A stretch of 55,568 nucleotides of DNA from Candidatus Woesearchaeota archaeon (GCA_016932755.1 JAFGCE010000085.1:1-55568), one strand, 5' to 3'; counted from the stretch's first letter, positions 9,218 to 48,506 are shown. Translations and numbers: made by a program. The notes: generated from the sequence alone by a model not told the origin.

Positions 9218-9238
9218 CAATCTAACAACACAAAACCC

Positions 9239-13345: not shown

Positions 13346-13386
13346 TTTATACATCCTCTTAGCAAATGCTTATTTAAATTTTTTGC

Positions 13387-14370
13387 TTAAACCTGTTTTC
13401 TTACAAGCACTTGTTTTGATATAGTGAAAGTATATCCGTAACTCATGTCAATCATCAGAGGGGTTGTATACGTTCCTCTTGATTTGGGTATCCCTTCTGC
13501 CAGCGTGCATCTGATGTAATCTTCATCACGCTCAAGCTTTACATAGCCTGTCTTGCTTTCTTCCGAGCCTTCATATTTTGGGGTGCAGTCAAGCTGTACG
13601 CTTCTGTCTGAAAGATACGCATTCAAGCCGACAACATTCCATGCCTTGCTCGCGATTCCGGTTGCCTTGCACGCGTTTTGGTACAGCCCCAGCTCTACAG
13701 GCAGGCCGTTTCCCATGTTTTTGACATAAATCATGTATGTTGGTATTATCAGCTCTTCATTTTCATGAGGCATCATCTTCTGCTCAATTTTTGTTATAGC
13801 TATTGGCGCTCCCTGTCCTGCAGGCAGTTCCTGGCCTCCCTGGGTTCTTGTCCCCATTCCGATTGTCGTTGGAGTGCATGCTTTTTGCGCCTGCCTTTCC
13901 CCGAATATGTCAGGGTCAACGCAGACTGTTGCTGTTGCCTCTGTCCTGTATGGATAGCATGCTGTCAGGGCAATGTTTGTTGTGATTGTCTCAGACTGGG
14001 GGTCAAGTTTTGCAGCTTCAACCTGGATTGTTTTCCTATCAATACCTCCAATAGGGTCGTACAAAGATTTTCCTGCCAAATCAAAATTTTCAAAGCCGTC
14101 CTGGTATTCCTGCGACCTTACATAAAGATACTCTTCAGTGCTCAGGACGAGAATCCCTCCCTTTATATCATAAGCTCCCTGGTTTGACATTTCAATAGAA
14201 ACAGGGAACACTTCGCCTAAATAAACCTCTCCTGGAGGGCTTTGTTCCATAAAGCTCATTTCAAGCCCCTGCGTTCCAACATGCACTTCGACAGGTTTTG
14301 GTGTTGCAGGACCTCCGCAGGCTGCGATTAACATAAGCCCAATTATTGCAAAAATAAATTTTATTTTCAT
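13387..14370 (-). CDS. secreted lipoprotein, paralog C
   Basis: MKIKFIFAIIGLMLIAAC lipobox start at 14370 with GGAGGC upstream. Same blocks as the paralogs (TACYPYRTEATATVCVDPD; YTTPLMIDMSYGYTFTISKQ). Confidence 0.7.
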   Translation of the reverse strand: MKIKFIFAIIGLMLIAACGGPATPKPVEVHVGTQGLEMSFMEQSPPGEVYLGEVFPVSIEMSNQGAYDIKGGILVLSTEEYLYVRSQEYQDGFENFDLAGKSLYDPIGGIDRKTIQVEAAKLDPQSETITTNIALTACYPYRTEATATVCVDPDIFGERQAQKACTPTTIGMGTRTQGGQELPAGQGAPIAITKIEQKMMPHENEELIIPTYMIYVKNMGNGLPVELGLYQNACKATGIASKAWNVVGLNAYLSDRSVQLDCTPKYEGSEESKTGYVKLERDEDYIRCTLAEGIPKSRGTYTTPLMIDMSYGYTFTISKQVLVRKQV

Positions 14371-14371
14371 T

Positions 14372-16636: not shown

Positions 16637-16669
16637 GGTCTACCAATTACCTCTTTTTTAGGAGAAGAA

Positions 16670-29779: not shown

Positions 29780-30370
29780 ATGTATGTTGATATTGTTTTC
29801 CCGGATGGAAACGAAAAGGAATTTTTGGAAACAGCGGAAAAGCTGGGCTACAGCAGGCTGGTTTTTGTTTATGAAAAACAGATTCCAGAAGCCCCAAAAT
29901 CAAAAATCAAGATAATCACAGGGCTGGTTGCAGAGGAAAAAACAATCCAAAGGGCAAAAAACCTTGCAGGTTTGGTCCTTGTTAAGTCATCCAGAAATGA
30001 CAGGTGGGTTCTGGAAAAATCAAAAGCAGACATCCTGTTTGGGCTGGAAGAAGGGCAGAGAAAAGATTTTATGCACCACAGGGCTTCAGGATTGAACCAG
30101 ATACTGTGCAAGATTGCAAAACAAAAAGACAAGATGATTGCATTCTCTTTTTCAGCAATACTTAACTCTAAAGGAGAGAGGAGAGCCCAGCTTTTGGGCA
30201 AGATGATGCAGAACATCAAATTCTGCAGGAAATACAAAGTCAGGACAATACTCGCTTCTTTTGCAAAAACACCTTACGGCATGAGGGCGCCTAATGACCT
30301 TGTTAGTTTCGGTGTCAGCCTTGGGATGCATCCAAAAGAAGCAAAGGATTCAATGAGCTGGACAAAATGA
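29780..30370 (+). CDS. rnp3: RNase P protein component 3 (Rpp30/Pop family)
   Basis: From memory, the C-terminal half aligns with archaeal Rpp30 (KYKVR..L.S.A....R.P.DL.S.GV..GM....AK.S.S). 196 aa. Confidence 0.7.
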   Translation: MYVDIVFPDGNEKEFLETAEKLGYSRLVFVYEKQIPEAPKSKIKIITGLVAEEKTIQRAKNLAGLVLVKSSRNDRWVLEKSKADILFGLEEGQRKDFMHHRASGLNQILCKIAKQKDKMIAFSFSAILNSKGERRAQLLGKMMQNIKFCRKYKVRTILASFAKTPYGMRAPNDLVSFGVSLGMHPKEAKDSMSWTK

Positions 30371-31548
30371 ATAGCCTGTGGTTTTTTTTGCCTGGGATAC
30401 TCTATCTTGGCATTATAACATCTTATACAGACATAAAGTACGGCAAGATAAAGAACAGGGACATTGTTATTGGGATTTGTTATGCTTTTGCTGTTTATCT
30501 TGGGTTTATAATTTATTCACTAATAACAAAACAGGGAATAAATTATACCTATTTTCTTGAGCTTTGCACAAACACATTTTTTGCTTTGGCAATAGCTTTT
30601 GGATTGTGGTATTTCAAGCTCTGGTCTGCGGGAGACGGAAAATTATTTTTTGCTTTTGCTTTGCTGGTTCCTTTTGAGGTATATCAATATGGGAAGTATG
30701 ATTGGATTCCTTCCCTCACTTTGCTGTTTAATGTGTTTATCATAGGATTGTTTGCGATGCTTTTGCTGATACTCAAGAATGCAAGGATAAATGATTATGC
30801 AAAGATGTTAAAGACTTTTTTTAAGAATTTTTTTGGGCCTGTGAGGTTAGCAAAGAGCGCAGTTTCCTTGTTTGCAATGTTCTGGCTTATTGACATCGTA
30901 TTTTCTTATTTAGGATGGGAAGGAAACCGCGTTTTGAAATATTTATTTACATTTTTGATTCTTTCCCTGATTCCTGCATTAACCAGTACATTTCCAGCAG
31001 GGAACAAAAAATTCCAAATTGAGTACATTGAATTGTACATTTTTGGGGCAGTATCTGTTGTCAGGCTGGTCATAGACAAATCTGTTTATTCCAGTAGTTT
31101 TTTAGTGGAATTTATCATGATGCTCATTATCTGGAGGATTTTCAGGTCATTAATGAGGCATGGGTTAAGCTCTTTAAGCAAGGACGTGTTTTCTAAGGAA
31201 ATTTCTGTTAAAAAATTGAAACCCGGGATGATACTATCTGACAAAATAACTAAGGTTAAGAAACTAAGCAAAGACGAAATAAAAAAAGTGAAAGACAAAG
31301 AAATGATATTTGTGACTAAGGGGAATGCTTCTTATATCCTTGGGGGGTATAAATCCGCAAAAGAATATATTGATGTCGAATCTGAGGGGCTGGAGAAAGA
31401 GCATATAGAAAAAATAAGAAAAACCGGGCTTAAGAAAGTAAGAATCTCTACAACACTGCCGTTTGCCCCCCTTCTTTTCATGGGTGTTCTAGCGACATTG
31501 TTAATCAAAGGAAACATTTTAATATTAAGGTATTTTCTCTTGAAATAG
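30367..31548 (+). CDS. A24-family prepilin/preflagellin-type aspartic peptidase with a long C-terminal extension
   Basis: First catalytic Asp context SYTDIKYGKIKN and second Asp in WSAGDGKLFFAF (GxGDxK-like). Polytopic. About 150 aa of extra C-terminal sequence. Confidence 0.75.
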   Translation: MNSLWFFLPGILYLGIITSYTDIKYGKIKNRDIVIGICYAFAVYLGFIIYSLITKQGINYTYFLELCTNTFFALAIAFGLWYFKLWSAGDGKLFFAFALLVPFEVYQYGKYDWIPSLTLLFNVFIIGLFAMLLLILKNARINDYAKMLKTFFKNFFGPVRLAKSAVSLFAMFWLIDIVFSYLGWEGNRVLKYLFTFLILSLIPALTSTFPAGNKKFQIEYIELYIFGAVSVVRLVIDKSVYSSSFLVEFIMMLIIWRIFRSLMRHGLSSLSKDVFSKEISVKKLKPGMILSDKITKVKKLSKDEIKKVKDKEMIFVTKGNASYILGGYKSAKEYIDVESEGLEKEHIEKIRKTGLKKVRISTTLPFAPLLFMGVLATLLIKGNILILRYFLLK

Positions 31549-31558
31549 GGGTGATTAT

Positions 31559-31996
31559 ATGCCAGATTCCGGTAATCTTAGAATAGAAAACAATCAATTA
31601 ACCATCTCTGTTAATCCCAAGCTTTATCCTTTGGAGGCAGTTTATTCTGCAGCCTACGTTTTCATGGACAGGGCTTATATTGTTCTGGACGGTGACCCAG
31701 ACAAAGGAATACTTGTTAAAATGAAGCTCAAAAAAGAAGGTTCTTTGGAGACACTTGGAAATGAATTCAACAATGAGCTGCTTAATTATTCTGACTATCT
31801 AACTAGAGCAAAAGAGACAAAAATTATAAGAGAATTGCTACTGCAAAGAGCGATAATAACCAACGATTCTTCTGTAGCAGAAAGCATAGATTTTGATGAG
31901 CTTGAGAATCTTGAGGAAGAATTTTTAGATGACCCCGAGGGGATAGCTATCCCGTGGGAAGAAAAATATGGCAAAGATGAAAATAAACCTGAATAA
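31559..31996 (+). CDS. hxsD: HxsD-like protein (His-Xaa-Ser system accessory protein)
   Basis: From memory, the HxsD family is named for an LLNDYxLRE-like motif. Here: NEFNNELLNYSDYLTRAKE after an (N.K.Y..EA...A...F) N-terminal block. GGGGTGA SD. Sits next to HxsB- and HxsA-like genes. Confidence 0.6.
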   Translation: MPDSGNLRIENNQLTISVNPKLYPLEAVYSAAYVFMDRAYIVLDGDPDKGILVKMKLKKEGSLETLGNEFNNELLNYSDYLTRAKETKIIRELLLQRAIITNDSSVAESIDFDELENLEEEFLDDPEGIAIPWEEKYGKDENKPE

Positions 31997-32171
31997 TAAA
32001 TTCTATAAAAAGGAGGCAATAGAAAAAGCAATTGCGGCATTTAAGGAAGTGTGCCCTTGCAGAATTATTAATTGTTCTTTTGAGGTTGAGATCAATGCAG
32101 AAGATGATGCTGTTGCAGACGAGTTTTGTAATTTTGTCCTTGGCATAACAAAAGACAGCATGCTTTTCTAA
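31968..32171 (+). CDS. short HxsD-like paralog
   Basis: 67 aa. MKINLNNKFYKKEAIEKAIAAF aligns with VNPKLYPLEAVYSAAYVF of the preceding protein, and ADEFCNFVLG with NEFNNELLN. Overlaps the upstream gene by 29 nt. Confidence 0.4.
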   Translation: MAKMKINLNNKFYKKEAIEKAIAAFKEVCPCRIINCSFEVEINAEDDAVADEFCNFVLGITKDSMLF

Positions 32172-32173
32172 AA

Positions 32174-33553
32174 ATGGGGTATACTATAAACAATTACAGA
32201 TTCAGGGAACTTGATGATAACTATTTTATCACAACAGACAGCGGGAGCTGGATCGCTTTAAACAAGGATGAATTTAACAGCCTTAAATCCAAAAAAATTG
32301 ATGAAAAATTAAAGCAAAAGCTTTTGCAAAGGGAAATACTCTTAGATGAAACAAACGAAAATGAATTTGTTAATGACTTAAGGAAAAGGAACAGCTTTCT
32401 TTTCCAGGGAGCTTCTTTGCATATTGTTGTAGTTACTTTGAGATGCAACATGAACTGTGTCTACTGCCATGCAAGCTCAGTAAGCCAGGATAAGAAGGGG
32501 TTTGATATGGATAAGGACACTGCGAAAAAAACAGTAGACTTCATATTCCAGTCCCCAAGCCCAAATATAACAATAGAATTCCAGGGGGGTGAGCCACTTC
32601 TTAACTGGGAAATTCTCAAGTTTATTGTCGGTTACGCAAAGCAGAAAAACAGAACAGCAAACAAAAAACTTAGTTTTTCTGTTGTTACAAATCTTTCAAT
32701 GATGGATGAAGAAAAAATGCAGTATCTAATCAGGGAAAGGATCCTTGTTTGCACTTCTCTGGACGGGCCAAAAGAGCTGCATGACAAAAACAGGATATTT
32801 GCAAGTTCCAGCAATTATGGGCAGGTTGTTTTTTGGATTAAAAAATTCATGGAGGAATACAAAAAGAAAAAAATAGAGAATGCCCGGATAAATGCTCTGG
32901 TAACATTGACAAAAAAAAGCCTCGGATATCCTGAAGAGATAGTTGATGAATACGTTAACCTTGGGTTGAATTTTATCCATCTTAGATTCCTAAACAATCT
33001 CGGCGTTGCACAAAAAATATGGCCACAAATAAGCTATTCTGTTGAAGAATACCTTGCTTTTTGGGAAAAAGCCATGGGAAGAATAAAAAAACATCAAAAA
33101 GATGGAAAAGAAATCTCAGAAAGGATTGTTGACATAATAGCTCACAAGATAGGGACAAAATACGACCCAAATTATTTGGACCTGAGAAGCCCCTGCGGGG
33201 TTGCAATAGGGCAACTTGCCTACCATTATAATGGGGATGTTTACACATGTGATGAGGGCAGGATGGTAGGAGATGAAATTTTTCTTTTGGGCAATGTGAA
33301 AAAAGACAGCTATAAGGATGCAGTAACCTGTGACAAGGCTTGCGCTGTCCTGAATGCCTCAATAAATGACCAGTTTGTCTGCGATGCATGCGCGTACAAG
33401 CCTTACTGCGGGCTTTGCCCTGTCTGCAGTTTTTCAGAAGAAGGGAGCATAATTGGAAAGGTTAGCCAGTCTGCGAGATGCAGGATTTTCAAAAGGCAGT
33501 TTGACTGGGTTGTTAAGGAAAGATTTATAAATCAAAAAAAGGACAATAAATAA
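32174..33553 (+). CDS. hxsB: radical SAM/SPASM maturase, HxsB-like
   Basis: CNMNCVYC at 32444-32467, GGEPLL, and a C-terminal SPASM-type Cys cluster (CGV...YTCDEG...CDACAYKPYCGLCPVC...ARC). 459 aa. Confidence 0.8.
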   Translation: MGYTINNYRFRELDDNYFITTDSGSWIALNKDEFNSLKSKKIDEKLKQKLLQREILLDETNENEFVNDLRKRNSFLFQGASLHIVVVTLRCNMNCVYCHASSVSQDKKGFDMDKDTAKKTVDFIFQSPSPNITIEFQGGEPLLNWEILKFIVGYAKQKNRTANKKLSFSVVTNLSMMDEEKMQYLIRERILVCTSLDGPKELHDKNRIFASSSNYGQVVFWIKKFMEEYKKKKIENARINALVTLTKKSLGYPEEIVDEYVNLGLNFIHLRFLNNLGVAQKIWPQISYSVEEYLAFWEKAMGRIKKHQKDGKEISERIVDIIAHKIGTKYDPNYLDLRSPCGVAIGQLAYHYNGDVYTCDEGRMVGDEIFLLGNVKKDSYKDAVTCDKACAVLNASINDQFVCDACAYKPYCGLCPVCSFSEEGSIIGKVSQSARCRIFKRQFDWVVKERFINQKKDNK

Positions 33554-33564
33554 AAAGAGGTAAG

Positions 33565-33948
33565 ATGGCATCAGTATACAGCAGAATTCCAGTTTTTAAG
33601 AAAAAAATAAGCTCTTTTCTTGCAAAAGAAGACGGCAAGATTAGCAAGGAGAATTTGATTAAAGCAGGCATCTTGGCAGCAATCCTTTCTGCAGGAGCAG
33701 CTGCAAGCGCAAAACAGGTTTCTGCCAGTGTAAGCTGCGACCCGTCATGCAGTGGAAACCCAGACCCGCCTAATGAACTCAATGTAGATAAAGACCTTGA
33801 CCCTATCCATTATAATTTTTTGCGCTTGGGCAAGTCCGGAGGAGCTTTTCAGGGAACCCACGAGCACTGTATAGAATCCTGTCATGTAAGCCATTCCTCT
33901 CATGGCAGCCATGGCAGCCATGGCAGCCATAATTCAACAGGCTGGTGA
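33565..33948 (+). CDS. hxsA: His-Xaa-Ser repeat precursor-like protein (HxsA-like)
   Basis: 127 aa. Basic N-region plus hydrophobic AGILAAILSAGAAASA, two C-x2-S-C motifs, and C-terminal HVS-HSS-HGS-HGS-HGS-HNS-TGW. GAGGT SD. Confidence 0.75.
   Translation: MASVYSRIPVFKKKISSFLAKEDGKISKENLIKAGILAAILSAGAAASAKQVSASVSCDPSCSGNPDPPNELNVDKDLDPIHYNFLRLGKSGGAFQGTHEHCIESCHVSHSSHGSHGSHGSHNSTGW
33883..33936 (+). repeat. six in-frame His-Xaa-Ser codon triplets, including a perfect 3 x 9-bp tandem repeat (catggcagc, 33901-33927)
   Basis: Read directly from the sequence. Confidence 0.95.
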
Positions 33949-33970
33949 TTATTTTAACAGGCATAATAAA

Positions 33971-34543
33971 ATGGTATCCGAAAAAAGACCAACAATTCTT
34001 TTTTTTGTTTTAATCTTATTCGTTCTCATAGCTCTTGCTTTTTTGATTTATTTCTTTATGATGAGAGAGCCTGAACCAAAAATAAACGAGAGGGAGACAG
34101 TACAATTAGATATCATGATCTCCGAAACAAAAGGCATAACAGATTGCGAAGCCTTAAACTTCACTAATCAGAGTGTTAATTTCACAGATGAGCTATCCCC
34201 TGAAGAATGCAAAAGTTTGCTGTACTTACGAGAAATAGTTAAAAGAGGGGACTGCTCCTTGTCTCCTGCGGGCTACTTTGACGAGGAAATAATACTTGAA
34301 GGTGAAGTAACAAAATACTGCGAAGCCATAATTTCAGGGGATGCAAGCAAATGCAGCGATATAAATGTAGACACGATGAAGATTAGTTGCCGGTATTTTG
34401 CTGCAAGACTTGTCCAAGCGTACAGGGAAAAGAATGCAGCCCTGTGCGAATTAAATAAAGATGAGAGTTATACAGTACCTATTGAAAGCGAGGATTATTT
34501 TTTCCCATTAGATGTCTGCAAAGCATTGTCTGCAATGCCTTAA
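33971..34543 (+). CDS. N-terminally membrane-anchored Cys-rich protein
   Basis: ATG at 33971 (MVSEKRPTILFFVLILFVLIALAFLIYFFMM), then about 150 aa with 8 Cys. Last gene of the plus-strand Hxs string. Confidence 0.55.
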   Translation: MVSEKRPTILFFVLILFVLIALAFLIYFFMMREPEPKINERETVQLDIMISETKGITDCEALNFTNQSVNFTDELSPEECKSLLYLREIVKRGDCSLSPAGYFDEEIILEGEVTKYCEAIISGDASKCSDINVDTMKISCRYFAARLVQAYREKNAALCELNKDESYTVPIESEDYFFPLDVCKALSAMP

Positions 34544-36837
34544 TTCTCTTCATTGACTACCTCTATTTTTTTGGAAATATCATCTAACTTGCTGAACAAT
34601 TCCTTATTATCCAAGAATTTATTTTTTACTAAAAAAACTGGAAAATTTATTTCAAAATCAGAAGTTGATGAAGCATATTTTGAGAACATAAACGGGGAAA
34701 TTTCGCTAAAAAATCCTTTTGCCCCGGGCTTCCAATAAGGGTGCATGTTGAATACCTTGATTCCTGAATTTAGATAGCTCTGGAAATGTACCGTGCCTGG
34801 TTTTATCTGGAAAGGGTATGCTAATAATGAAGTATTTTCTGATTTTAAATTATGAAAAAATTCATAAGAAGCGTCCATATCCTCTTTTTTCTCTTGGGGA
34901 GAGCCAAAAATATAAGAGTAAGTCACTTTAAGATTAGAATTCCCGATAACAGGAATTATTTTCTTTATATGATCAATATACTCTTGTGGATTTTGGCTTT
35001 TATTGAAAAATTTTATGATGCTTGGGAATACGGATTCAATGCCTATAAAGAATTCGAGATTCTTGTTTTCTAATTTTTTAATTAGCTCTTTTGAAAAACT
35101 ATCAATCCTTGTCTGCAGACTGAATCTCATATCAAATTTGCCGAATAAGTTCAGCAAATTTTTCCCTCTTTCGCAACTAGGGTTAAATGACGAATCCTTA
35201 ATTTGTATTGCATTAATGTCATAAAGCTTGGATAATCTTGCCAGCTGGTTTTTAACATAATCCTCACTAAAGACGGTGCGGGGAGAGCAGGAATTATGCA
35301 TACAGAAACTGCATTTATTGGTGCATCCGACCGAAGTAAAGATTTCCGCCCTCTTGCCATAACTCTTGATGTTAAAACCCTCAAAGTCGTCATAGTCAAA
35401 AACAACCGGATTTTCCTCAGACGGTCTTCCGTAATTTATTTTGCGTGCATCTGTATTTTTTTTTAGGTAAATCTTTTCAATTAATTCAAGAACTTCCTTC
35501 CTTCCTGTGGCTATGTAGCTCTCATCCCCCTTGCAATTTCTGATTATGCAAGACAGAATTTTTGGCTCCAAAAAAAAGGAGTAAAAAATTATTTTCGTAT
35601 TTGAATCCTTCTTTAGCCTCTCTATTAGCTCAAGTGAGAATAGTATGTCTGATCTGGGTGTGGCAGAAAACACTAGTATTTTGGGGCTCATGCCAAGCAC
35701 TTTATTTTTTATTGAATCAATTGCTTTCTCTCTTTTTTCCCTTATCTCTTCCTCTTTTTTGGAGTCATAAAGCCCCCTTATGCAGGAAGAGAAATCAAGC
35801 CCTGTGCACCTGTCCTTGAATTTTTGTTTTGCTTCTTTCAGGAGCATAGCAAAATGAGGGAAGGGAGGTCTTCCGCTCGCATTTCTTTCTAGCACAGGTA
35901 TCCAAATGAATAGCGTGTCTTGGTGATTTTTTTTGGGCAATGTGGGGTAGTACTTAAGGTATTCTTTCCAATATCCCTCGCATTTATCGGAATACGCACA
36001 TTTTTCGCATTTGTAAATTTTTGTCCTTGCTATACTCTTCCTGTTTTTTTCAACTGATTTATTTATGAAGTCAGGAGCTATATGCTCGGTATGGAATGTT
36101 TGTGTTTCGTGTAGCTCGCTGATTTGGCTGTGGTACTCTTCATTTACATAGCATAAAGGGTAATACCTAACATGCCAGTGTCTTGCTTTTATTTCTCTTC
36201 CAAATTTTAAAAGATTGTTTACATAAGGCGAAACCTGCTCATAAGTGGGGACAACTTCCAAGAAATTATTCTTTGTAGCGCCATGGGTGGGATCCACGAA
36301 TATAAATTCAGAGTTCCGTATCCCCATACCAAAAATTAATTTGCCTATCTCCAGAAGATTTTTATAATTTTGTTTAACAATTGTTGTATTAGAGCCAATA
36401 TTTTTGAATCCAATCTCCTGCAGGTTTTTTATGCCTTCTCTTAGCTGTTCAAAACTTCCGGGAACTTGTGTTAATTTGTCATGGAGCTCTGCATTATGCC
36501 CGTGTATTGAAAAGACGATATGGCTGAGCCCGCATTCGATAATTTTTCTTGCAAAATCCTTTTTTGAGAACATTCTGCCGTTAGTGGCAATCATTATTGT
36601 CCGGAAATCAAGTTTTTTTGCAAATGCAATAATCCCTAAAATATCCTTCCTTATTGTAGGTTCTCCCCCGATAAATTCTATGTAATCTGCCCCGCTTTTT
36701 TTTGCATTAATAATATCCTTCTTCACTTCCTCGGTCGTTTTATCTTTTATCTTCTGTCTTTTGTTTTCATTGCAGCAGAAAATACATTTGTTGTTGCATG
36801 AATACCCCATAAGTATTACTGTTTTCTTAATTTTCAT
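34540..36837 (-). CDS. dual radical SAM protein (HxsC-like-type module + class-B-like second radical SAM domain)
   Basis: CNNKCIFC at 36775-36798 with a module-ending CEKCAYSDKCEGYWKEY. Second core VGCTNKCSFC at 35302-35325, preceded by a Rossmann-like segment. ATG at 36837 preferred over the TTG at 36858. Confidence 0.8.
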   Translation of the reverse strand: MKIKKTVILMGYSCNNKCIFCCNENKRQKIKDKTTEEVKKDIINAKKSGADYIEFIGGEPTIRKDILGIIAFAKKLDFRTIMIATNGRMFSKKDFARKIIECGLSHIVFSIHGHNAELHDKLTQVPGSFEQLREGIKNLQEIGFKNIGSNTTIVKQNYKNLLEIGKLIFGMGIRNSEFIFVDPTHGATKNNFLEVVPTYEQVSPYVNNLLKFGREIKARHWHVRYYPLCYVNEEYHSQISELHETQTFHTEHIAPDFINKSVEKNRKSIARTKIYKCEKCAYSDKCEGYWKEYLKYYPTLPKKNHQDTLFIWIPVLERNASGRPPFPHFAMLLKEAKQKFKDRCTGLDFSSCIRGLYDSKKEEEIREKREKAIDSIKNKVLGMSPKILVFSATPRSDILFSLELIERLKKDSNTKIIFYSFFLEPKILSCIIRNCKGDESYIATGRKEVLELIEKIYLKKNTDARKINYGRPSEENPVVFDYDDFEGFNIKSYGKRAEIFTSVGCTNKCSFCMHNSCSPRTVFSEDYVKNQLARLSKLYDINAIQIKDSSFNPSCERGKNLLNLFGKFDMRFSLQTRIDSFSKELIKKLENKNLEFFIGIESVFPSIIKFFNKSQNPQEYIDHIKKIIPVIGNSNLKVTYSYIFGSPQEKKEDMDASYEFFHNLKSENTSLLAYPFQIKPGTVHFQSYLNSGIKVFNMHPYWKPGAKGFFSEISPFMFSKYASSTSDFEINFPVFLVKNKFLDNKELFSKLDDISKKIEVVNEEN

Positions 36838-37747
36838 TTTTATCTTTCCCGAATTCAATCAAGATGCCCGAAAATTTATCCCTTTTTTCAATAATGTCTT
36901 GGCTTGCATTTGGGATACTTATTGAATCTTTGCTTAAGGTTAATTTTTTGGTTATAAGGAGGGTTTTTCTAAATTTTTCGGAGGGCATATTCAAATTTTT
37001 TCCAGTGCCATTCCCCCCAAACTGGAGACACTTGCTAAATTTGACAGTTCCTGCCGAGAAATAGTTGTTGAATGTTATCTGGAACCTTGTGTCGTGAAAC
37101 AGCCGTATTCCATGCGAGCAGTCAAACCAAAGCAGGATTGGCTTGGACAGCCATCCTGAAATTTTATCTGCAAATGGCTGATTTATTTTTTCAATAAATG
37201 CCAGGATTTCCTTGTTGTATTTGATAGTTTTTTCGCAGCCGAAACTGCATGGCTGGTGAAAGCTCAATGAGAGGTTATGGGGATACAAAAGCCAGTTGCA
37301 GTAGCAGGACTTAATTCCTTTGAGTTTTTTTAGTAAATGTTCGTGCGCTTCCTCCTTATTTTTTTTGATTAGACTGGCTTGGTCATTTATGCAGCAGAGA
37401 GGATAGCCAAGAGCTTTTGCAAAGTCGAGCATTTCTTTTTCTGTTTGCTTTTCGTATTTGTTTTCAGGGTCATTCAGGGAGTAGTATTCTGCCAGTTCCT
37501 TGTCTTTGGAAATATATGCTGGAAGCAACAAGCCTCTTCCCTTTCCAAAAGAAACATGTACATCAAAAAGTTTGAAAATCTTGGCAAACTTTTCTTTATT
37601 TTCTTTGTGCACATGCATCTTAGCCAAGTTTTTGATTCCGCTTATTACAGCATAACTATTTGCGCTTATTGGGAAAAAAGATATGACTTTGTCATGTATC
37701 TTCTTGTATTTCTTTAGTTGCTGCTCGCTGCATCTTGTCTTGTCCAT
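36827..37747 (-). CDS. hypothetical Cys-motif protein (GYPLCC ... HQPCSFGCE)
   Basis: 306-aa ORF embedded in the coupled operon. Conserved-looking Cys/His motifs; no family named. Confidence 0.6.
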   Translation of the reverse strand: MDKTRCSEQQLKKYKKIHDKVISFFPISANSYAVISGIKNLAKMHVHKENKEKFAKIFKLFDVHVSFGKGRGLLLPAYISKDKELAEYYSLNDPENKYEKQTEKEMLDFAKALGYPLCCINDQASLIKKNKEEAHEHLLKKLKGIKSCYCNWLLYPHNLSLSFHQPCSFGCEKTIKYNKEILAFIEKINQPFADKISGWLSKPILLWFDCSHGIRLFHDTRFQITFNNYFSAGTVKFSKCLQFGGNGTGKNLNMPSEKFRKTLLITKKLTLSKDSISIPNASQDIIEKRDKFSGILIEFGKDKNEN

Positions 37748-37750
37748 TTT

Positions 37751-38620
37751 TTATTTTCCCGTGTCTTTCACTGGCATGAACTCATTTTCGCCAAAAAAAT
37801 CTAGATAGCTTTTCCATATTCCAGAGCATTCGCTCTTTTTTTGACACAAACTGCACTTTTCAGCAAAAACAACTGATGAAGAGTCCGCAGTGACCCCTTT
37901 TGAATACTCCCACAGCCCTTTTGGCAGGGTGCAGTGGGGGAAATGGAACAGCCATACTTTATATCCTTTTGAAATCAATTTTTTTATTGGAGCCTCGAGA
38001 ACTTCAGATAGCTTAGTTATCCTCTCAGCTACAAATTTGGCATTCTTGCCGGCAGTTCCTGTCAATTTCGGGTTCATAATAACTATTGAATTAAAGTTGC
38101 GGCTTTCAAAGTTATCAATTATAAAATCTGCAATTTCGTTGAAATGCGCGTAATTCATCTTGTGGAGCAGAATCCTTAGCTCAATCTTCACATTGTTTTT
38201 GGCAAGATTTTTTATTCCCGCTATCTTGTACTTGAAACTTGCAGGGTTTCTTGCTATTGAGTTTTGTATTTTAGGATTATGCCCGTATAAAGTCGTGATT
38301 ATCTTTAGGTTTTTTATCTTTGAGATTCTTTCAGTGAATTTGTTATAATAAAATGACTGGGCGTTTGTCAGAATCCCAATCTCATGCGGGTTCTTTTTTT
38401 CAATATACTTTAAAATTTCCAGCAAATCCTTCCTTAAAGTAGGCTCCCCTCCATTTATCTCTATATGGCTGTGAGACTTCAAAATTTCATCAGCCTCCTT
38501 TTTGATATCTTCAAGAGAGGGGTTTTCCATTCCGTATCTTCTTGAGACAGGGCAGGATATGCAGTTGTCATTGCAATTGTATACCACAGGCACAAATGTT
38601 TTATTCTTTATTTTGTTCAT
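37751..38620 (-). CDS. radical SAM protein (single module of the locus-specific paralog family)
   Basis: CNDNCISC at 38552-38575, GGEPTLRKDL, C-terminal CSLCQKKSECSGIWKSY. Confidence 0.8.
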   Translation of the reverse strand: MNKIKNKTFVPVVYNCNDNCISCPVSRRYGMENPSLEDIKKEADEILKSHSHIEINGGEPTLRKDLLEILKYIEKKNPHEIGILTNAQSFYYNKFTERISKIKNLKIITTLYGHNPKIQNSIARNPASFKYKIAGIKNLAKNNVKIELRILLHKMNYAHFNEIADFIIDNFESRNFNSIVIMNPKLTGTAGKNAKFVAERITKLSEVLEAPIKKLISKGYKVWLFHFPHCTLPKGLWEYSKGVTADSSSVVFAEKCSLCQKKSECSGIWKSYLDFFGENEFMPVKDTGK

Positions 38621-40823
38621 TCTTTATTTCTCCGCAAACACTTTTTAAAAAACATAGACTGCACAATCTATTTTTTTCATCTAGGAAACAGTCTTGGTTT
38701 CCGAGATTATTAAATTCTCCTAAAAAGTTGATATACTCAGCGAGAGAAGGGGCATAGCTTTCATAATCTTCAAAATACTCGGGCTCAAAGAACTCAAAAT
38801 GAAGGGGCACTTTTTTATCTTCAGCAAAGGAAATTATGCCTGGCAGGTATTTCTTAAATGAGGACGGCGAAAAACAGAGCTTTTTTGCATTTAAAACGCC
38901 TCTTCCTTTTGGGGCAAATTTCTGGATATTGAACTTATTGACCCCGATTTCATGAAATTCCTTTATAACAGGCAAGATGTCATTCAGGTTGTCCTTAATA
39001 CAGACATAATTTATCCTGACATTAACCCATTCTCTGACAAGATTTATTATGCCTCTTCTTGTTTCTTTGTACGCCCCTTTTACCTGTGTTATTCTGTCGT
39101 GGGTCTGCTCGCTTCCATGAACAGCGACTATTGCACTATTTAATCCGCTCTTGGCTGTGGCTCTAGCGAATTCTTTATTGGAAAATCTCCTGCCGTTTGT
39201 TACAACTCCAATTCTCTGTATTTTCCTGTCAGCGAAAAATCTGATTAGCTTTAGCAGGCTCTTTGCGTATATTGTCGGCTCACCGCCTGTAAAAAATATT
39301 TCTTCGGGCTTCTTTTCCAGTATTTTTTTAACCTGGAACAAAACTTCTTCTTCATTTTTTTTGGCTTTGCTATCCCTATTATTGTCCCAGCAAAAAATGC
39401 AGTTGTTGTTGCAGCTATGCCCGAGGATTATATTTATTGATTTTGGCATGTGTTTTTGTTTCTTTAGCTGCAGGTATCTTTTAATAATAACTGATAAATC
39501 AAAGAAAAATAACGAATAAAGAAACCTTTCTTGAGCTTTTTCAGGAAGGAAAAACATTCTGTTTTTTTCTATCCTTGCCATATTTATCCCTTCCAGTTCT
39601 TTCACTTCTTTCCTGAAATCCTGGAGAAACTCAGATTTGAACAGCGATTTGTACTCAGGAAACCTTATGTATTGCCGGCATGCCAATTCGCATAAGAGGT
39701 AATACCTCTTTTGGCTTTTCTCATCAAGTATAACCCCCTCCGCAGACAGTTCATTAGTTCTGTACCTAACCTTATTAAATATATAAGAGCAGGAATATCT
39801 CCCGATGCCGAAACAGCTGCTTTCCATTCTATTGTCAAAAGAATACTCAAAGTCAAACGAATGCCTTTTTTTTGACAGCAAAAACCATGGAGAGGCTGTC
39901 CTTATGTTGTCCAACAAGGGTCTGTGTAATTCATAATCCTTAACTTTCTCTTTAATGAGCCGGGATAATATTTTGATTTTTTTATTAAGCTGGTTGTAAT
40001 AAAATTTAACATCACCCTTAAAATTATTATCAAGGTATTGATTTGTCGGCTGGAGGGGGTAAAGGGAGATTGAAGACGGGTTAAGTTCGACAAGTTTCTT
40101 TAGGCTTTCAAAAACAGTATTGGCTGAATCCTTTTTAAGACCGACGATTAAATCCAGGCCAACATGCTTTATTCCATACTCCTTCACAAGCCTAACCATC
40201 TTTTTTATTTTTTCATAATCTTGATAAGACCTGTTTTCGGATTCAAGAACCTCTTTATCGAGTGACTGAACCCCCAATGATATAGAGTTAATGCCGTATT
40301 TTTCCAATATCCTCAATTTTTCCTGGTTCAGGCTGTCGGGATTGCTTTCAAATGTTTTTTTCCCTTTCTTTTCAAATTCAAAATTGGCGAATAGGTTTTT
40401 CAGGAGCACATCAATCTGCTTTTCAGATAATATGCTGGGGGTTCCTCCGCCTATATAGAGGCTTTTGAACTTTATGCCTTTGAATACGCTGCTGAAGCAT
40501 TTCATTTGACCAACCAAACCCGAAACATATTCATTTATCTCGTTTTCAGAAGAAACCTTTTTTGAGATGTACATGCAGTATTTGCATTTGCTCCTGCAGA
40601 ACGGAATATGGAGGTAGAATTGAAGGCTATCCCTGGATTTCCCAGATTTTATTTCTGCTGCTCTTTCGCTCCATAACCCTTTTATTTCATGCAAACTAAA
40701 ATTTTTCTTTGGCATGACCAAATCCAGGATATCAGGCAGCAAAAAATTATTTTTGTATCCACTTTTTTTAAGCAAATCAGCAACTTCCCCAAAAAATTTT
40801 ATTTTTTGATGTGCAAACTTCAT
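38601..40823 (-). CDS. fusion of a HemN/HemW-like radical SAM domain and a second radical SAM module
   Basis: N-terminal LHIPFCRSKCKYC (40575-40598), YIGGGTPS, ISLGVQS (HemN-like). C-terminal CNNNCIFC (39390-39413), GGEPTIY, ending CSLCFLKSVCG. Confidence 0.8.
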   Translation of the reverse strand: MKFAHQKIKFFGEVADLLKKSGYKNNFLLPDILDLVMPKKNFSLHEIKGLWSERAAEIKSGKSRDSLQFYLHIPFCRSKCKYCMYISKKVSSENEINEYVSGLVGQMKCFSSVFKGIKFKSLYIGGGTPSILSEKQIDVLLKNLFANFEFEKKGKKTFESNPDSLNQEKLRILEKYGINSISLGVQSLDKEVLESENRSYQDYEKIKKMVRLVKEYGIKHVGLDLIVGLKKDSANTVFESLKKLVELNPSSISLYPLQPTNQYLDNNFKGDVKFYYNQLNKKIKILSRLIKEKVKDYELHRPLLDNIRTASPWFLLSKKRHSFDFEYSFDNRMESSCFGIGRYSCSYIFNKVRYRTNELSAEGVILDEKSQKRYYLLCELACRQYIRFPEYKSLFKSEFLQDFRKEVKELEGINMARIEKNRMFFLPEKAQERFLYSLFFFDLSVIIKRYLQLKKQKHMPKSINIILGHSCNNNCIFCWDNNRDSKAKKNEEEVLFQVKKILEKKPEEIFFTGGEPTIYAKSLLKLIRFFADRKIQRIGVVTNGRRFSNKEFARATAKSGLNSAIVAVHGSEQTHDRITQVKGAYKETRRGIINLVREWVNVRINYVCIKDNLNDILPVIKEFHEIGVNKFNIQKFAPKGRGVLNAKKLCFSPSSFKKYLPGIISFAEDKKVPLHFEFFEPEYFEDYESYAPSLAEYINFLGEFNNLGNQDCFLDEKNRLCSLCFLKSVCGEIKNEQNKE

Positions 40824-42751
40824 TTTTTGTAGATTTTTCCGTTTGTTACTTCAAGATAATCCCCTGTTTTTATTAGGTCTGTACAGCCGTCTACTCCAAC
40901 TAAGCAAGGAATTTCCAGCTCCCTGCACACTATTGCAGCGTGAGATATCAAACCGCCTCTTTCTGTGATTACACCCCTGCAGACAGCCATGGCAGTAACA
41001 AGGGAGGGAGAGGTTTCTTCAGCTACAAGAATATCCCCGGGATTTACCTCTTCCTTGCGCCCAACAAAATCAATGATTTTTGCTTTTCCCTCAAAGTTTC
41101 CAGGTGAAGCTATTTTTCCATTCAGAGGAAATCTTCTTTTTTTTCCTGTAGGGACCTCTTTCTTTGCTTCCCTGATTTTTTCTGCCTCTCTGATTATCTG
41201 GGGGATGGTTTTTTCTAGTATAACTCTGAATGGGAGTTTACATAGGGGATTAATGTCGCTTTTTGTTTCCATGTAAAACAATCTTGCATAGTTATGTGAT
41301 ACTACCTCAATAAAATAATTGTTTGCGTCATGCAGCCACAGCAGTTTTTGCAGGTTGTTGACAACAGGAACGTTGGATTCTAATTTTTGCCCGCTTTTTT
41401 TTTGCAATTTCATCCTTAATTCCATAGCGGATTTGCCAGGCATTTTTTTTATCAACCCGGGCTGCGAAAGTATATTAGAGTATAATGCTTTTCCGCTTTT
41501 GAAAATAGAAAGAAGATTCATGCTGGTAAGAGTCAATTTATCAGGCCTAAAAATATCCGGTCTGCTCTCCTCATTTATTTTGAGTTTTTCCTGCAAATAT
41601 TCCTTGAGTGCAAAAATCAGGAACCTGTTGATTAGGTAGTCAATAAAAAACAAAGTTATCTGGAACCTCTTGAATTTGATGATATAGTCTTTCGCACTTT
41701 TCTCCTTTTCCAGCGAGGTTTGGGCTTGCTTTTCCTGAAACTTAAGAATTTTTTCAATAAACTTGTCTATTATCTTTTTATCTAATATTTTTATATAAGT
41801 TTCCTCTATAATTTTAGAATACGAGCCGTAATCTATGAGTATATCAGAGGACTTTTTTTCCATGCTCTGTATTCTTGTCCTGAAACCCAGCTTTTCCAGC
41901 AATAAGTTAAGGTTGCTTAAGGATACATCTTCAACATGCAGCCCATGTTTTTCTGCACTTCGGAATATAAAATGCTCTCTTACCCTTAGCGGTGCAGTAA
42001 TCTTCCTCATCTGGGTTATCCATACTTTTCCGTTTCTGACAACAAATTCAAGGTCAGCATTTTCCCAACCAAACTCATTTATTTCCTTGGGCAGGTTTTT
42101 GAAGCTGTTTATGAATCCATAATTTTTAACTTTCTTGTCGTTCAAAAGCAAAAATCCATTTTTTAGCGCAAAAATTTTAGGATTTATCCTGCCGAGCTCC
42201 ACATCAGATGAAGAGCCTTCAGCAAATTCAACAAAAAGAGAGCTGTCTTTTTTATTGTAAAATGCAACGCCTCCCAAATCAGGTTCTATGTATTCCTGGA
42301 TTATTACCCCCATTCCTGTTTTCTGCTTGATTCCCTTTGTTCTAATGTATTCTGCAGCCCTGGGGTTAAACTGGCTGTGCCATACTTTCTTGATATTTTC
42401 CGGTATATGTTTTGCAGGGCACTTAATTGAGTCAAACAATCCTGCAAAACTGTGCTTTTCAGTATCCTCAAAAAAATATGAAGACCGCAGAATCGGATTT
42501 TTTATGTTAAGATTGATTAACCCCTTGTTTATCTCGCTTAATAGATTGTCGTCAAACATGTTTTCAAATATAATTTTCTTCATCTGGTTTTTGTCTAGGT
42601 TACTAAAATCCGGTTTTTTCAAATGATCAAAAAATACAGAACTGTCTAAAACAAGGAAATTCGGGCAAAGGTTTTTTTTGTCTAATCTTATTAGATTTTC
42701 AGCCTTCGCCCCGATTCCTGTTTTTTTATTCTTGATTATTATGCTGTGCAT
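40820..42751 (-). CDS. PEP-utilising enzyme family phosphotransferase (N-terminal PPDK-type ATP-grasp, C-terminal swivel-His domain)
   Basis: N-terminal GIGAKAENLIRL...FLVLDSSVF. C-terminal PGDILVAEETSPSLV...ERGGLISHAAIVCRELEIPCLVG. ATGA overlap with the downstream gene. Confidence 0.8.
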   Translation of the reverse strand: MHSIIIKNKKTGIGAKAENLIRLDKKNLCPNFLVLDSSVFFDHLKKPDFSNLDKNQMKKIIFENMFDDNLLSEINKGLINLNIKNPILRSSYFFEDTEKHSFAGLFDSIKCPAKHIPENIKKVWHSQFNPRAAEYIRTKGIKQKTGMGVIIQEYIEPDLGGVAFYNKKDSSLFVEFAEGSSSDVELGRINPKIFALKNGFLLLNDKKVKNYGFINSFKNLPKEINEFGWENADLEFVVRNGKVWITQMRKITAPLRVREHFIFRSAEKHGLHVEDVSLSNLNLLLEKLGFRTRIQSMEKKSSDILIDYGSYSKIIEETYIKILDKKIIDKFIEKILKFQEKQAQTSLEKEKSAKDYIIKFKRFQITLFFIDYLINRFLIFALKEYLQEKLKINEESRPDIFRPDKLTLTSMNLLSIFKSGKALYSNILSQPGLIKKMPGKSAMELRMKLQKKSGQKLESNVPVVNNLQKLLWLHDANNYFIEVVSHNYARLFYMETKSDINPLCKLPFRVILEKTIPQIIREAEKIREAKKEVPTGKKRRFPLNGKIASPGNFEGKAKIIDFVGRKEEVNPGDILVAEETSPSLVTAMAVCRGVITERGGLISHAAIVCRELEIPCLVGVDGCTDLIKTGDYLEVTNGKIYKK

Positions 42752-44531
42752 TTTTTTGTCCTAGAATAATCTTGCTTCCAGGCTGGTCCATGGAAATATA
42801 TTTTTCATAATTGCTTTTTGCGACATCTATCAGGTTTTTTGGGGGTATGGTTGTTGTTATTATGCTAACCCCTTTTCTAAAAAGGGCTTTCGGATAAAGC
42901 AAGGCACTTCTTCCGAAAATAAAAACCATCTTTGCCTGTAGGGCATTTCTTATTATGCTTTCAAATGTGCCATTAGGGATGGTAGAGCCTGATAGCACCA
43001 GCACATCACTTTTTTTTATTATATCTTCTTTTACTTCCTTGTAAAAAAACGCCTCCTTGCCCGTTTCCTTCTTGAATTTAGCATATTCCTTTTCTATTTG
43101 CTGTTTTCTTTTATGGTCTGTAAAAAATCCCCTGTCAAAGATGTGGATTTCGGCTGCTTTTGAATATTCAACAAACCCATGCAGTGCGAATCCAACTTGG
43201 GAGATTACAGGATTTTCCGCGCTTTTTTCTTGGGGGTATTCTTCCAGTGTGTTTTTTTTGATTATGCTGCTTTTAATCAGGGCTGCGGAATTAAGCGCTG
43301 CTGTATAAAGGCTGAATAATCTTGCATTGTTCCTGAAGGGAATTGTGAACCCGTCCTTTTTTAGGTTTAGTTCTGAATCAACATAAAAATCCCTTAACCA
43401 TTCATTCTCCAGTTCTTTCCATCCGCCTATGCACAGGCATGTCCCGCAAAATCCCTTGTCATTGACAGCAACAGGATAAAATGAAAGCAAAGCCTCCTTG
43501 ATTAATATTTTTGAAACGCTTAACTCTTCAAAAAGCTCTTTGGCTGTTGCTTTCAATATATTGCCTGAAATACCCTCTTCTGTTTCAAGTTTGCTTAGTT
43601 TTTCAAATATTGGCTTTTGTTCAACCATAGCGATATGCTTTTTTATAGTATTAAACTCCTTATTTCCTAATTTTTCGGGATATTCCTTCCACGGACCCTC
43701 ACAAATCGGGTTATAACCGCAGCCATCGCACTGAGGGAATTTTGCTTTCCCTTTCTCCTTCCTTTGCTTTGTAAAGCTGTCTGTGTTCTGGTGCTTCTGC
43801 CCTCGTATTTCTGTTTCTGGAATCACTTTCTCAGAAATGTAAGCCTCATAACCAGCCATCTGGCAGTAAGGCATTGCCTCTGCCATAACTTTTTTGCCTG
43901 CATCAATCCCAATCTGAAGCCCATTGTGAATGTAAGGTGCTGCCAGAGATATTGAAGGGACAATACTGTCAAAATTATTCCATGCATTCCCCATTGGGTG
44001 GACAAAAGCAAACTGGAACTGGTCAACATTAAGATTCACAAGCAGTTTTGCTATATCAGGCAGATTCCTGTAGTTCGGCTTTACAACAACTGTGTTTGTA
44101 AGGACATACTGCCCAAGTGATTTCAGGTTTTTTATTCCCTGAACAGTCTGTCTGAAGCTTCCAGGAGCTCTTGTAAGGAAGTCATGCTGTTCTGCGCAAT
44201 AGCCGTGTATTGCAGGGGAAAACTCTGTTGCCCCTGCTTTTATTGCTTTTTTGCAGAAATTAAGCGATGAGAACATCCTGCCGTTTGTCTGGATTTGTAT
44301 TGTTTTATAGCCAAGACTTTTTGCATATTCAACAATATCAAGAAAATCTTTTCTTATAGTAACCTCTCCGCCTGTAAGAACAACTCCTTCACATCTTTTT
44401 CTTGAATCTTCCAAATCTTTTTTTATCCCTTCCAGAGACCGGTTTCCTTTGCATTTGTTGTCTGCTTGGACACAGAATCTGCAGTTATTGTTGCAAATAA
44501 ATCCAGTCTTGATATCCACCCTTTTTCCCAT
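42726..44531 (-). CDS. radical SAM module fused to a DUF4213/DUF364-like (putative chelation, Rossmann-like) domain
   Basis: CNNNCRFC at 44472-44495, GGEVTIRKDF, CDGCGYNPICEGPWKEY. C-terminal AALNSAAL...DVLVLSGSTIPNGTFESII...VFIFGRSALLYPKALFRKGVS resembles the DUF364 pattern. Confidence 0.7.
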   Translation of the reverse strand: MGKRVDIKTGFICNNNCRFCVQADNKCKGNRSLEGIKKDLEDSRKRCEGVVLTGGEVTIRKDFLDIVEYAKSLGYKTIQIQTNGRMFSSLNFCKKAIKAGATEFSPAIHGYCAEQHDFLTRAPGSFRQTVQGIKNLKSLGQYVLTNTVVVKPNYRNLPDIAKLLVNLNVDQFQFAFVHPMGNAWNNFDSIVPSISLAAPYIHNGLQIGIDAGKKVMAEAMPYCQMAGYEAYISEKVIPETEIRGQKHQNTDSFTKQRKEKGKAKFPQCDGCGYNPICEGPWKEYPEKLGNKEFNTIKKHIAMVEQKPIFEKLSKLETEEGISGNILKATAKELFEELSVSKILIKEALLSFYPVAVNDKGFCGTCLCIGGWKELENEWLRDFYVDSELNLKKDGFTIPFRNNARLFSLYTAALNSAALIKSSIIKKNTLEEYPQEKSAENPVISQVGFALHGFVEYSKAAEIHIFDRGFFTDHKRKQQIEKEYAKFKKETGKEAFFYKEVKEDIIKKSDVLVLSGSTIPNGTFESIIRNALQAKMVFIFGRSALLYPKALFRKGVSIITTTIPPKNLIDVAKSNYEKYISMDQPGSKIILGQKNAQHNNQE

Positions 44532-47243: not shown

Positions 47244-47245
47244 GA

Positions 47246-48505: not shown

Positions 48506-48506
48506 G

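Follow-up and report, generated by a model that had tools for sequence, protein, structure and literature searches.

Among bacterial defences, HXS of Escherichia coli is the first found to stop phage DNA from entering the cell, as very recent work shows; this anti-phage effect is exerted by the mature protein (Li et al., Nat Commun 2026, PMC13128918). The canonical system is a four-gene cassette with the gene order HxsD-B-C-A and a peptidoglycan-binding domain in HxsA; in E. coli, the last His-Xaa-Ser (HxS) repeat of the matured protein was found to carry a +8 Da change and HxsC binds HxsD, and 99.7% of the HXS systems in the published survey were found in Pseudomonadota (PMC13128918). HxsA-D were described by Haft and Basu in 2011, as cited in PMC9062424. 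NCBIfam contains models for variant members (NF038309 for HxsA3, NF038313 for HxsA4, NF038332 for HxsC4, and NF038315 for HxsD_rel); our literature search found no paper on these variants, nor any on archaeal or multi-HxsC Hxs systems. Here, we describe one His-Xaa-Ser maturation system of ~14 kb (about 30367–44531; locus tags of the region JW707_05090-05150) in the window, i.e., the whole 55,568-bp contig of a metagenome-assembled genome (MAG) of Candidatus Woesearchaeota (DPANN). The initial annotation of this DNA, made from the sequence without database searches, took the product and function of Hxs systems as unknown and was aware of no archaeal version. The first statement is superseded by the E. 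coli work, and the second by NCBI, which names HxsB in many Woesearchaeota and Nanoarchaeota MAGs, this contig included.

The system comprises 12 genes on two convergent strands, i.e., the 11 open reading frames (ORFs) of the initial annotation (31559–44531), each of which was recovered exactly in ORF calling, and one peptidase gene outside those coordinates. The plus-strand string includes the following features (aa, amino acids; SAM, S-adenosylmethionine).

30367..31548, plus strand: A24L (393 aa), a polytopic aspartyl peptidase of the prepilin type (A24) whose C-terminal domain is of the archaeal PepC family
31559..31996, plus strand: HxsD-like protein 1 (145 aa; 46.6 bits against TIGR03976 [HxsD], narrowly missing the cut-off of 50)
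31968..32171, plus strand: HxsD-like protein 2 (67 aa; 50.7 bits against NF038315 [HxsD_rel], passing the cut-off of 41)
32174..33553, plus strand: HxsB, a radical SAM/SPASM maturase (459 aa; 462.8 bits against TIGR03978, passing the cut-off of 370)
33565..33948, plus strand: HxsA-like precursor (127 aa) with a basic leader, one hydrophobic segment, a Cys spacer, six HxS, and a C-terminal Trp
33971..34543, plus strand: membrane-anchored protein with Cys-rich repeats (190 aa by the NCBI start; longer ORF at 33902-34543)

The minus-strand string encodes the proteins P6 to P11.

34540..36858, minus strand: P6 (772 aa), in which an HxsC4-like radical SAM domain (residues 1-310) is joined to a class-B-like one (about 310-772)
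36827..37747, minus strand: P7, a four-Cys-motif protein (LGYPxCC ... H.PCxxxC; 306 aa) with a weak DUF483 match (19.6 bits, cut-off 25)
37751..38620, minus strand: P8, an HxsC-type radical SAM enzyme (289 aa; 173.3 bits against TIGR03977, missing the cut-off of 267.9)
38601..40823, minus strand: P9 (740 aa), in which a HemN-like (class C-type) radical SAM domain is joined to an HxsC-like one
40820..42751, minus strand: P10, a three-domain phosphotransferase of the rifampin phosphotransferase (RPH)/PigC type (643 aa), with ATP-grasp, helical middle, and C-terminal swivel-His domains
42726..44531, minus strand: P11 (601 aa), in which an HxsC4-like radical SAM domain is joined to DUF364

The two strings converge with a 4-nt overlap at 34540–34543, and adjacent minus-strand genes overlap by 26, 4, or 20 nt or are spaced by 3 nt; the P7/P6 overlap is 32 nt with the TTG start of P6 and 11 nt with an ATG start at 36837. 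The ORF coordinates thus bear out the convergence and tight packing described earlier. The seven CxxxCxxC triads begin at C91 of HxsB, C21 and C512 of P6, C16 of P8, C76 and C471 of P9, and C13 of P11, in exact agreement with the nucleotide positions first read, and Pfam Radical_SAM was detected in all five radical SAM proteins of both strands. Based on Pfam and NCBIfam family matches, the enzyme roster of the initial annotation was essentially correct. About a quarter of the 55.6-kb contig of a genome-reduced DPANN archaeon is given to this system, suggesting that it is important to the cell.

Like the HXS systems of E. coli and other Pseudomonadota, the locus encodes an HxsB radical SAM/SPASM enzyme, small proteins of the HxsD family, and HxsC-type enzymes that bear an auxiliary Cys motif at the C-terminus, and its predicted substrate resembles that of E. 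coli in having tandem HxS near the C-terminus, an N-terminal region that would be removed, and a hydrophobic export signal. It differs from canonical HXS in gene number (12 versus 4), in the number of HxsC-like domains (four versus one), and in having two HxsD-like proteins. Whereas the canonical order is D-B-C-A, the window has D-D'-B-A-TM (TM, transmembrane protein) converging with an HxsC array. The window precursor has a 30-residue basic leader, Gly or Ser (not a basic residue) as Xaa, an acidic mature part, and no peptidoglycan-binding domain, and the locus adds a dedicated A24 peptidase and HemN-like, class-B-like, RPH-like, DUF364, and P7 modules in an archaeal host. The locus is Hxs-like by HxsB, its HxsD-like proteins, and substrate logic, with the equivalog cut-offs of HxsC and HxsA missed.

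The assignment to the Hxs type was upheld by HxsB and the 67-aa HxsD-like protein (also named ‘HxsD-like protein’ by NCBI), which pass their NCBIfam cut-offs, and by the match of the precursor leader to HxsA3. HxsB contains the Pfam domains Radical_SAM, Fer4_12, and SPASM, and a lenient Pfam scan of its N-terminus for a recognition domain found none. HxsD-like protein 1 carries an LLN..DYLTR-type motif, and homologues in related loci have Pfam HxsD (PF27806). The plus-strand string is without HxsC. The membrane-anchored Cys-rich protein (33971-34543) had no family match in profile scans; a protein with the same N-terminal transmembrane segment and (D/N)xxxC...C repeats occurs after HxsA in at least seven related loci (L003, L004, L007, L008, L009, L011, and L045; the prefix L denotes the loci described below), a link that is by position and composition only, with none given by phmmer.

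The precursor ends in ...HVSHSSHGSHGSHGSHNSTGW, which includes the six C-terminal HxS triplets that had been read from the sequence. It has no Pfam domain, and its matches to the variant models are below cut-off (leader: 32.5 bits against HxsA3 [NF038309], cut-off 65; tail: 23.2 bits against HxsA4, cut-off 55). The hydrophobic segment finishes in ASA|KQ, the spacer has a GTHEHC..SCH motif, and the tail contains 9 His and 4 Cys in 78 residues. The same architecture of leader and repeats is common to about 50 precursors beside HxsB and to 97 representative clusters, and, judging from sequence, the window precursor appears clearly homologous to these leader-type precursors adjoining HxsB. Their basic leader has the consensus [IL]P.[IL]KK.I..FL..E[ED]GKI.K....K.G and is followed by a single hydrophobic segment of ~20 residues, often with AxA at its end, a spacer, and 3 to 55 H-[GS]-S repeats, with a C-terminal W or Y in 35 of 48 cases. 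The GTH.HC..CH motif is an extra feature of a Woesearchaeota subgroup. Some HxS-repeat precursors (277–600 aa) are extended at the C-terminus by a Hint/intein-like region (CCFPAGTM...KIKVGE...) or have a conserved CCPF..WNG..F.IENNILP domain; such extended precursors of either type were found in L046 (1855-), L064 (4443-), P0155, L054, L055, L068, and L088.

Four HxsC-like domains, not recognised as such in the initial annotation, are located on the minus strand, i.e., P8, the N-terminal halves of P11 and P6, and the C-terminal half of P9 (hereafter, P11N, P6N, and P9C). HxsC or HxsC4 is the top-scoring NCBIfam family for each of them (P11N: 153.3 bits against HxsC4, 101.5 against HxsC; P6N, residues 1-310: 149.5 bits against HxsC4 [NF038332], 94.6 against HxsC; P9C: 109.2 bits against HxsC), and none of the four reached the HxsC cut-off (TIGR03977, 267.9 bits). 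All four have a CxxCx5C motif (at residue 284 in the P6 N-domain), and a C-terminal CxxCx(4-7)C is present in 96 of 97 HxsC-like domains of related loci. P8 is the nearest to canonical HxsC: its clade contains 17 sequences in 16 loci, one copy per locus, and the HxsC genes of the Bacillota loci L013 and L014, which pass the TIGR03977 cut-off, have P8 as their best phmmer match. The HxsC-like domains form three old clades, namely the one-per-locus P8/HxsC clade, the P9C clade, and a large multi-copy HxsC4-like clade. Because the domains fall in these separately conserved clades, their origin by recent tandem duplication was rejected. Given that HxsC is missing from the plus-strand string and that four HxsC-like domains are present on the other, the minus-strand string provides the missing core enzyme.

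To place the locus, neighbourhoods of HxsB were gathered by exact look-up, a genome scan, a metagenome scan with an HxsB alignment, and an IMG/VR scan, yielding roughly 90 relatives, and stop-to-stop ORFs of all loci were annotated by phmmer using the window domains as queries. The genome scan relied on exact 8-mer patterns and recovered 7 archaeal loci only, from which no prevalence estimate for Woesearchaeota follows. The best 120 of 5,819 HxsB matches at E ≤ 1e-20 all showed 52–78% identity; those with a named source were mostly MAGs of Woesearchaeota, Nanoarchaeota, or Nanobdellota, and many were already named HxsB by NCBI or JGI. Among 28 well-flanked loci (at least 2.5 kb of sequence upstream of HxsB and 8 kb downstream of it), HxsD was found in 24, a recognisable HxS precursor in 18, and an A24-type peptidase in 16, whereas HxsC-like domains numbered at least one in 25 loci, at least three in 18, and at least four in 16. 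P11N, P8, and P6N all have orthologues, in varied order, in each of the archaeal MAG loci L001, L003, L007, L009, and L011, and some multi-HxsC loci are bacterial by their flanking genes (PlsY/FakA/DegV in L065, Lnt in L072, and YgeY in L121). The multi-enzyme form is common in uncultured archaea and bacteria, and the window locus is typical of a large uncharacterised clade and no one-off.

These neighbourhoods bear on whether chance has brought two unrelated pathways next to each other, a possibility that the initial annotation had allowed. In that case, the minus-strand string would serve cofactor chemistry (tetrapyrrole, molybdopterin, or B12-type) and not the HxS precursor. Weaker AhbD, NirJ, MoaA, and HemN matches of the minus-strand domains would fit such an arrangement, as would the occurrence of DUF364 and class-B-like domains in cofactor contexts. 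However, HxsC/HxsC4 is the best-scoring family for four of the domains, the HxsC needed by the system is missing from the plus strand, no other cofactor-pathway genes are present, and HxsC-like arrays lie near HxsB in 25 of the 28 well-flanked archaeal and bacterial loci, in many gene orders. The recurrence of this gene set around HxsB in dozens of independent loci is more than chance, and we consider two unrelated pathways very improbable; the neighbourhood check points to one system.

L004, the nearest relative by synteny, agrees with the window in every gene on both sides of the array, with PheRS, TtuA, RNase P p30, the peptidase, HxsD, HxsD', HxsB, HxsA, and the transmembrane protein on one side and 860-, 418-, and 1850-aa proteins on the other. 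At 12435-13592 of L004, a single PapB-like SPASM radical SAM gene stands in place of the 10-kb six-gene array of the window (34540-44531), implying that the array is a variable slot beside a conserved core. In many metagenome loci (L008, L074, L084, L090, L098, and L113-L115), the precursor is followed by a similar radical SAM gene of a ‘short HxsB-like’ kind. In L001, from the second MAG with a P10 homologue, the radical SAM array comes directly after RNase P p30, an arrangement that would fit an inversion of the whole Hxs module compared to the window, and the contig ends right past the array, before any core; TtuA/NcsA beside RNase P p30 is split in this locus (5168-6224) into two ORFs of 231 and 127 aa.

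Simple cassettes were found in the Bacillota loci L013 and L014 and in IMG/VR contigs, and their HxsC and HxsA3 pass the curated cut-offs. These HxsA3-type cassettes have the same precursor leader as the window (FL.EE.G.I...G, then a hydrophobic segment), contain HxsB, HxsD, and HxsC, and in L013, L015, L123, and L131 share an A24-like peptidase. In contrast to the window, where the HxsC-like domains and the precursor are below cut-offs, they lack accessory enzymes and encode a single HxsC, which passes TIGR03977. Fifteen of the IMG/VR contigs (L123-L137), predicted to be viral or proviral, carry simple HxsB and HxsC cassettes with HxS-repeat genes, and the expanded array is present in none of them. 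These viral and proviral cassettes fit with HXS travelling on mobile elements in bacteria.

The additional gene, A24L, passes the Pfam cut-off for Arc_PepC (25.8 bits, cut-off 23.4) and misses that for Peptidase_A24 (20.7 bits, cut-off 26.5). Both catalytic Asp motifs, SY.D[IL][KR]..[KR]I.N and W.AGD[GA]K[LF]F, are kept in 27 homologues, all from HxsB loci. With two Asp motifs and a match to a family hidden Markov model, A24L is by its sequence assigned to peptidase family A24. The gene lies directly upstream of HxsD in Woesearchaeota-type loci (L002-L004, L007-L010, L043, L048, L064, L073, L083, and L107) and at other places within the cluster in bacterial loci. In the sampled loci, the A24 peptidase accompanies leader-type precursors only and never HxsA of the Sec-signal type. 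By its linkage to HxsB, the A24 peptidase is a conserved component of the system, and A24L is proposed, on the basis of these sequence features, as a candidate leader peptidase of the precursor.

The remaining minus-strand modules extend the system beyond its HxsC-like domains. The initial annotation knew of no Hxs locus coupled to a phosphotransferase, a HemN-like enzyme, or a DUF364 domain, all of which we found to recur in other Hxs loci. The C-terminal half of P6 (residues 310-725) aligns over its full length with an L003 protein that bears Pfam B12-binding and Radical_SAM (26% identity, E 7e-20), and residues 455-672 match the PhpK family core (53.6 bits). Its description as class-B-like rests only on homology, and no Pfam B12-binding domain (PF02310) was detected in P6 at E ≤ 5. 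Similarly, the HemN-like character of the N-terminal half of P9 agrees with matches to HemZ, HemW, HemN, and ChuW models (120–168 bits, each below cut-off) and with PDB sequence matches to HemN (1OLT) and the class C methyltransferase NocN (9P2U), whereas HemN_C was not found by Pfam at E ≤ 5. A HemN-like domain is present in 9 of 92 loci, and the HemN-HxsC fusion recurs in L001 and L007; exact look-up of P9 returned no record with this start codon. Compared to multi-radical-SAM clusters for ribosomally synthesised and post-translationally modified peptides (RiPPs; thiopeptide NocN/TbtI-type and PhpK-type), the locus would share leader-dependent radical SAM tailoring as well as HemN-like and class-B-like domains. 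It differs in that B12-binding and HemN_C are undetectable, in that methyltransferase activity is only putative here, and in that its core enzymes, HxsB and HxsC, are unused by known RiPP classes.

P10 matches Pfam PPDK_N (71.4 bits) and PEP-utilizers (80.1 bits; PEP, phosphoenolpyruvate), with the phospho-His contained in GGLISHAAI, which confirms the earlier identification of a PEP-utilising enzyme with ATP-grasp and swivel-His domains. A Pfam scan found no PEP/pyruvate triosephosphate isomerase (TIM) barrel (PF02896), and the identity of P10 as a PEP synthase was rejected because this barrel is absent. The best fold matches of an AlphaFold model (predicted local distance difference test [pLDDT] 68) were rifampin phosphotransferase structures (5HV3, 5HV1, and 5FBS; E about 1e-22), compared to 2e-10 for PPDK. 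By its domain order, its motif, and the absence of a TIM barrel, P10 fits the PEP-utilising phosphotransferases of the RPH/PigC type; it has the three-domain order and phospho-His motif of RPH and PigC/RedH-type enzymes, with RPH-Lm giving the best fold matches. Unlike RPH, with which it shares 16% identity, P10 has a shorter middle substrate domain (modelled at low confidence) and presumably acts on a peptide or modified residue rather than on an antibiotic or pyrrole. It misses all NCBIfam equivalog cut-offs and is thus no orthologue of any named enzyme. Homologues of P10 lie inside the Hxs arrays of L001, L045, L116, and L121, with L001 being the only close one.

P7-like ORFs are found in six Hxs loci, i.e., L003 (where the ORF is fused to an HxsC-like domain), L044, L046, L063, L068, and L112. 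An AlphaFold model of P7 from a 2-sequence alignment was unusable (pLDDT 44), and a literature search on DUF483 returned only unrelated DUF483x families. A word-based homologue search gave one full-length relative each for P10 and P7, whereas phmmer on the fetched loci revealed more distant ones, so the rarity in the word search reflects a limit of its sensitivity. Residues 489-563 of P11 are DUF364 (PF04016; 50.7 bits, passing the cut-off of 23), as the initial annotation had proposed, but DUF4213, the usual N-terminal partner of DUF364, was undetected at E ≤ 5. Fusions of an HxsC-like domain and DUF364 also occur in L009 and L011.

The His and Cys content of the tail and the DUF364 fusion bear on a different product, the one hypothesised in the initial annotation, namely a secreted or surface metal-binding peptide (metallophore or buffer) whose modified tail binds Ni, Zn, Cu, or Fe outside the cell. 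This explanation draws on the conserved GTH.HC..CH motif before the HxS repeats, on Gly or Ser as Xaa, which gives flexible His arrays without basic residues for DNA binding, on the AxA site after the hydrophobic segment, which would permit release, and on the fusion of DUF364 to an HxsC-like domain in three archaeal loci. However, many family members are without Cys, and no transporter, receptor, or metal-responsive regulator was found in or beside the loci examined. The metal-chelation-type domain of the initial annotation is merely the Pfam naming of DUF364 (‘heavy-metal chelation’), and the sole characterised homologous system is anti-phage (PMC13128918). We regard a metal-binding product as unlikely.

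From the family memberships, gene linkage, and motif conservation observed in these loci, we infer a pathway for one leader-type (HxsA3-like) HxS system, including its substrate relationships, order of steps, topology, peptidase role, and biological function. The HxsA-like precursor would be made in the cytoplasm, and its conserved basic leader would be recognised by HxsB and the two HxsD-like proteins. HxsB and the four HxsC-like domains would carry out radical chemistry on the C-terminal tail (TH.HC..CH, the six HxS, and the terminal W), with lineage-specific tailoring probably provided by the HemN-like (class C-type) domain, the class-B-like radical SAM domain, the RPH-like phosphotransferase, DUF364, and P7. 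By analogy with RPH, P10 may transfer the ATP beta-phosphate via His~P onto a hydroxyl group. The hydrophobic segment would carry the tail across the membrane, the A24-type aspartyl peptidase would cut off the leader at the cytoplasmic face, and the AxA site past the hydrophobic segment may allow an additional release of the tail. The product, most likely a heavily modified HxS effector, would then be located on or outside the cell envelope, beside the membrane-anchored Cys-rich protein. Based on the analogy with E. coli HXS, its most likely function would be to form a barrier at the envelope that keeps out viral or other foreign DNA. As a whole, a leader-type system with an envelope-located product and a likely barrier role seems to us slightly more probable than improbable.

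Several observations weigh against this reading. HxsC, the 145-aa HxsD, and HxsA are below the curated equivalog cut-offs. The junction motif is K-[AT]-G and thus departs from the [KR]-G that is classical for class III signal peptides. No A24 peptidase lies within 10 kb in about half of the leader-type loci, and L004 has no HxsC-like gene within 10 kb. In addition, leader-type precursors have a neutral to acidic mature part (mean net charge -2.6), and their Xaa is G or S and never K/R. Because E. coli HxsA is basic, the electrostatic DNA-binding mechanism proposed for it is not directly transferable to these proteins. The precursor also lacks a peptidoglycan-binding (wall-binding) domain, and HxsB is highly conserved (52–78% identity) and lies among syntenic housekeeping genes (TtuA, RNase P p30), which makes the locus less like a mobile defence island. 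The non-basic repeats, the missing wall-binding domain, and the housekeeping-like conservation weaken the anti-viral analogy, which is still the best one available.

Downstream of the minus-strand string, the window encodes large secreted proteins that adjoin the Hxs core.

44661-54014, plus strand: three large secreted proteins (860, 419, and 1845 aa)

The 860-aa protein is Cys-rich and has a Sec signal, and the 1845-aa protein has Big_13, TSP3, and fn3 domains. In the window and L004, the giant proteins are encoded downstream of the core, whereas in L007 and L048 their homologues are upstream and divergent; this proximity may reflect a functional link, or synteny only among Woesearchaeota. 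In a further explanation, the Hxs product would be a structural or adhesive component of the DPANN surface that acts with the giant proteins, e.g., in host attachment or surface-layer organisation, rather than a defence effector. Consistent with this, homologues of the 860-, 419-, and 1845-aa proteins adjoin the core in differing arrangements in the window, L004, L007, and L048, with partial matches in L002, L008, L010, and L058; processing by a prepilin-type peptidase is typical for surface filament subunits, and the strong conservation of HxsB and its housekeeping context would also suit a surface role. In contrast, neither an assembly ATPase nor a platform gene of a pilus or archaellum was found among the window ORFs examined or the called genes of annotated loci, bacterial family members are without the giant proteins, and the linkage could be mere synteny among related Woesearchaeota. 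We attach a low probability to a surface role, and the envelope barrier remains our preferred reading.

A bolder reading, which we offer only tentatively, is that leader-type multi-HxsC loci are a distinct, undescribed maturation class shared by DPANN archaea and uncultured bacteria. In such a class, A24 processing would be combined with a Gly/Ser HxS tail that an RPH-like enzyme and radical SAM domains, up to seven or more of them, would rebuild, yielding a new envelope-displayed peptide chemistry; it would be near-core in Woesearchaeota and tied to the giant surface proteins, for virus exclusion or host contact. The window locus and its roughly 90 relatives reveal a much larger family with more diverse enzymes in archaea and uncultured bacteria. 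This family supplies a candidate processing protease (A24-type), its natural ‘add-on’ enzymes could reveal what happens to HxS repeats, and its simple and complex variants form a set for heterologous reconstitution.

Residues 1280-1384 of the 1845-aa protein (48477-54014) contain three CGG[TA]C..C that fit CxxxCxxC; these are part of a secreted repeat protein and are no radical SAM sites, which calls for caution in motif-only scans. A PADLOC (2023) scan gave generic viperin-like radical SAM matches only, and this version is without Hxs models. tRNA and Rfam scans of the window found none. The genes flanking the Hxs locus are archaeal housekeeping genes, encoding a Hef/XPF-type helicase-nuclease, RFC, aRF1, PheRS, a cysteine desulfurase, TtuA/NcsA, and RNase P p30. 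Elsewhere in the window, five successive minus-strand ORFs (11440-17857; 310, 317, 346, 754, and 395 aa) had no Pfam match at E ≤ 1e-5, and a Cas4/PD-(D/E)XK-type nuclease gene is located at 9149-10087 on the plus strand. The G+C content is 0.36–0.39 over ~30–45 kb, i.e., the entire Hxs locus, compared to 0.40–0.46 in both flanks, a difference that could reflect acquisition or differing codon usage.

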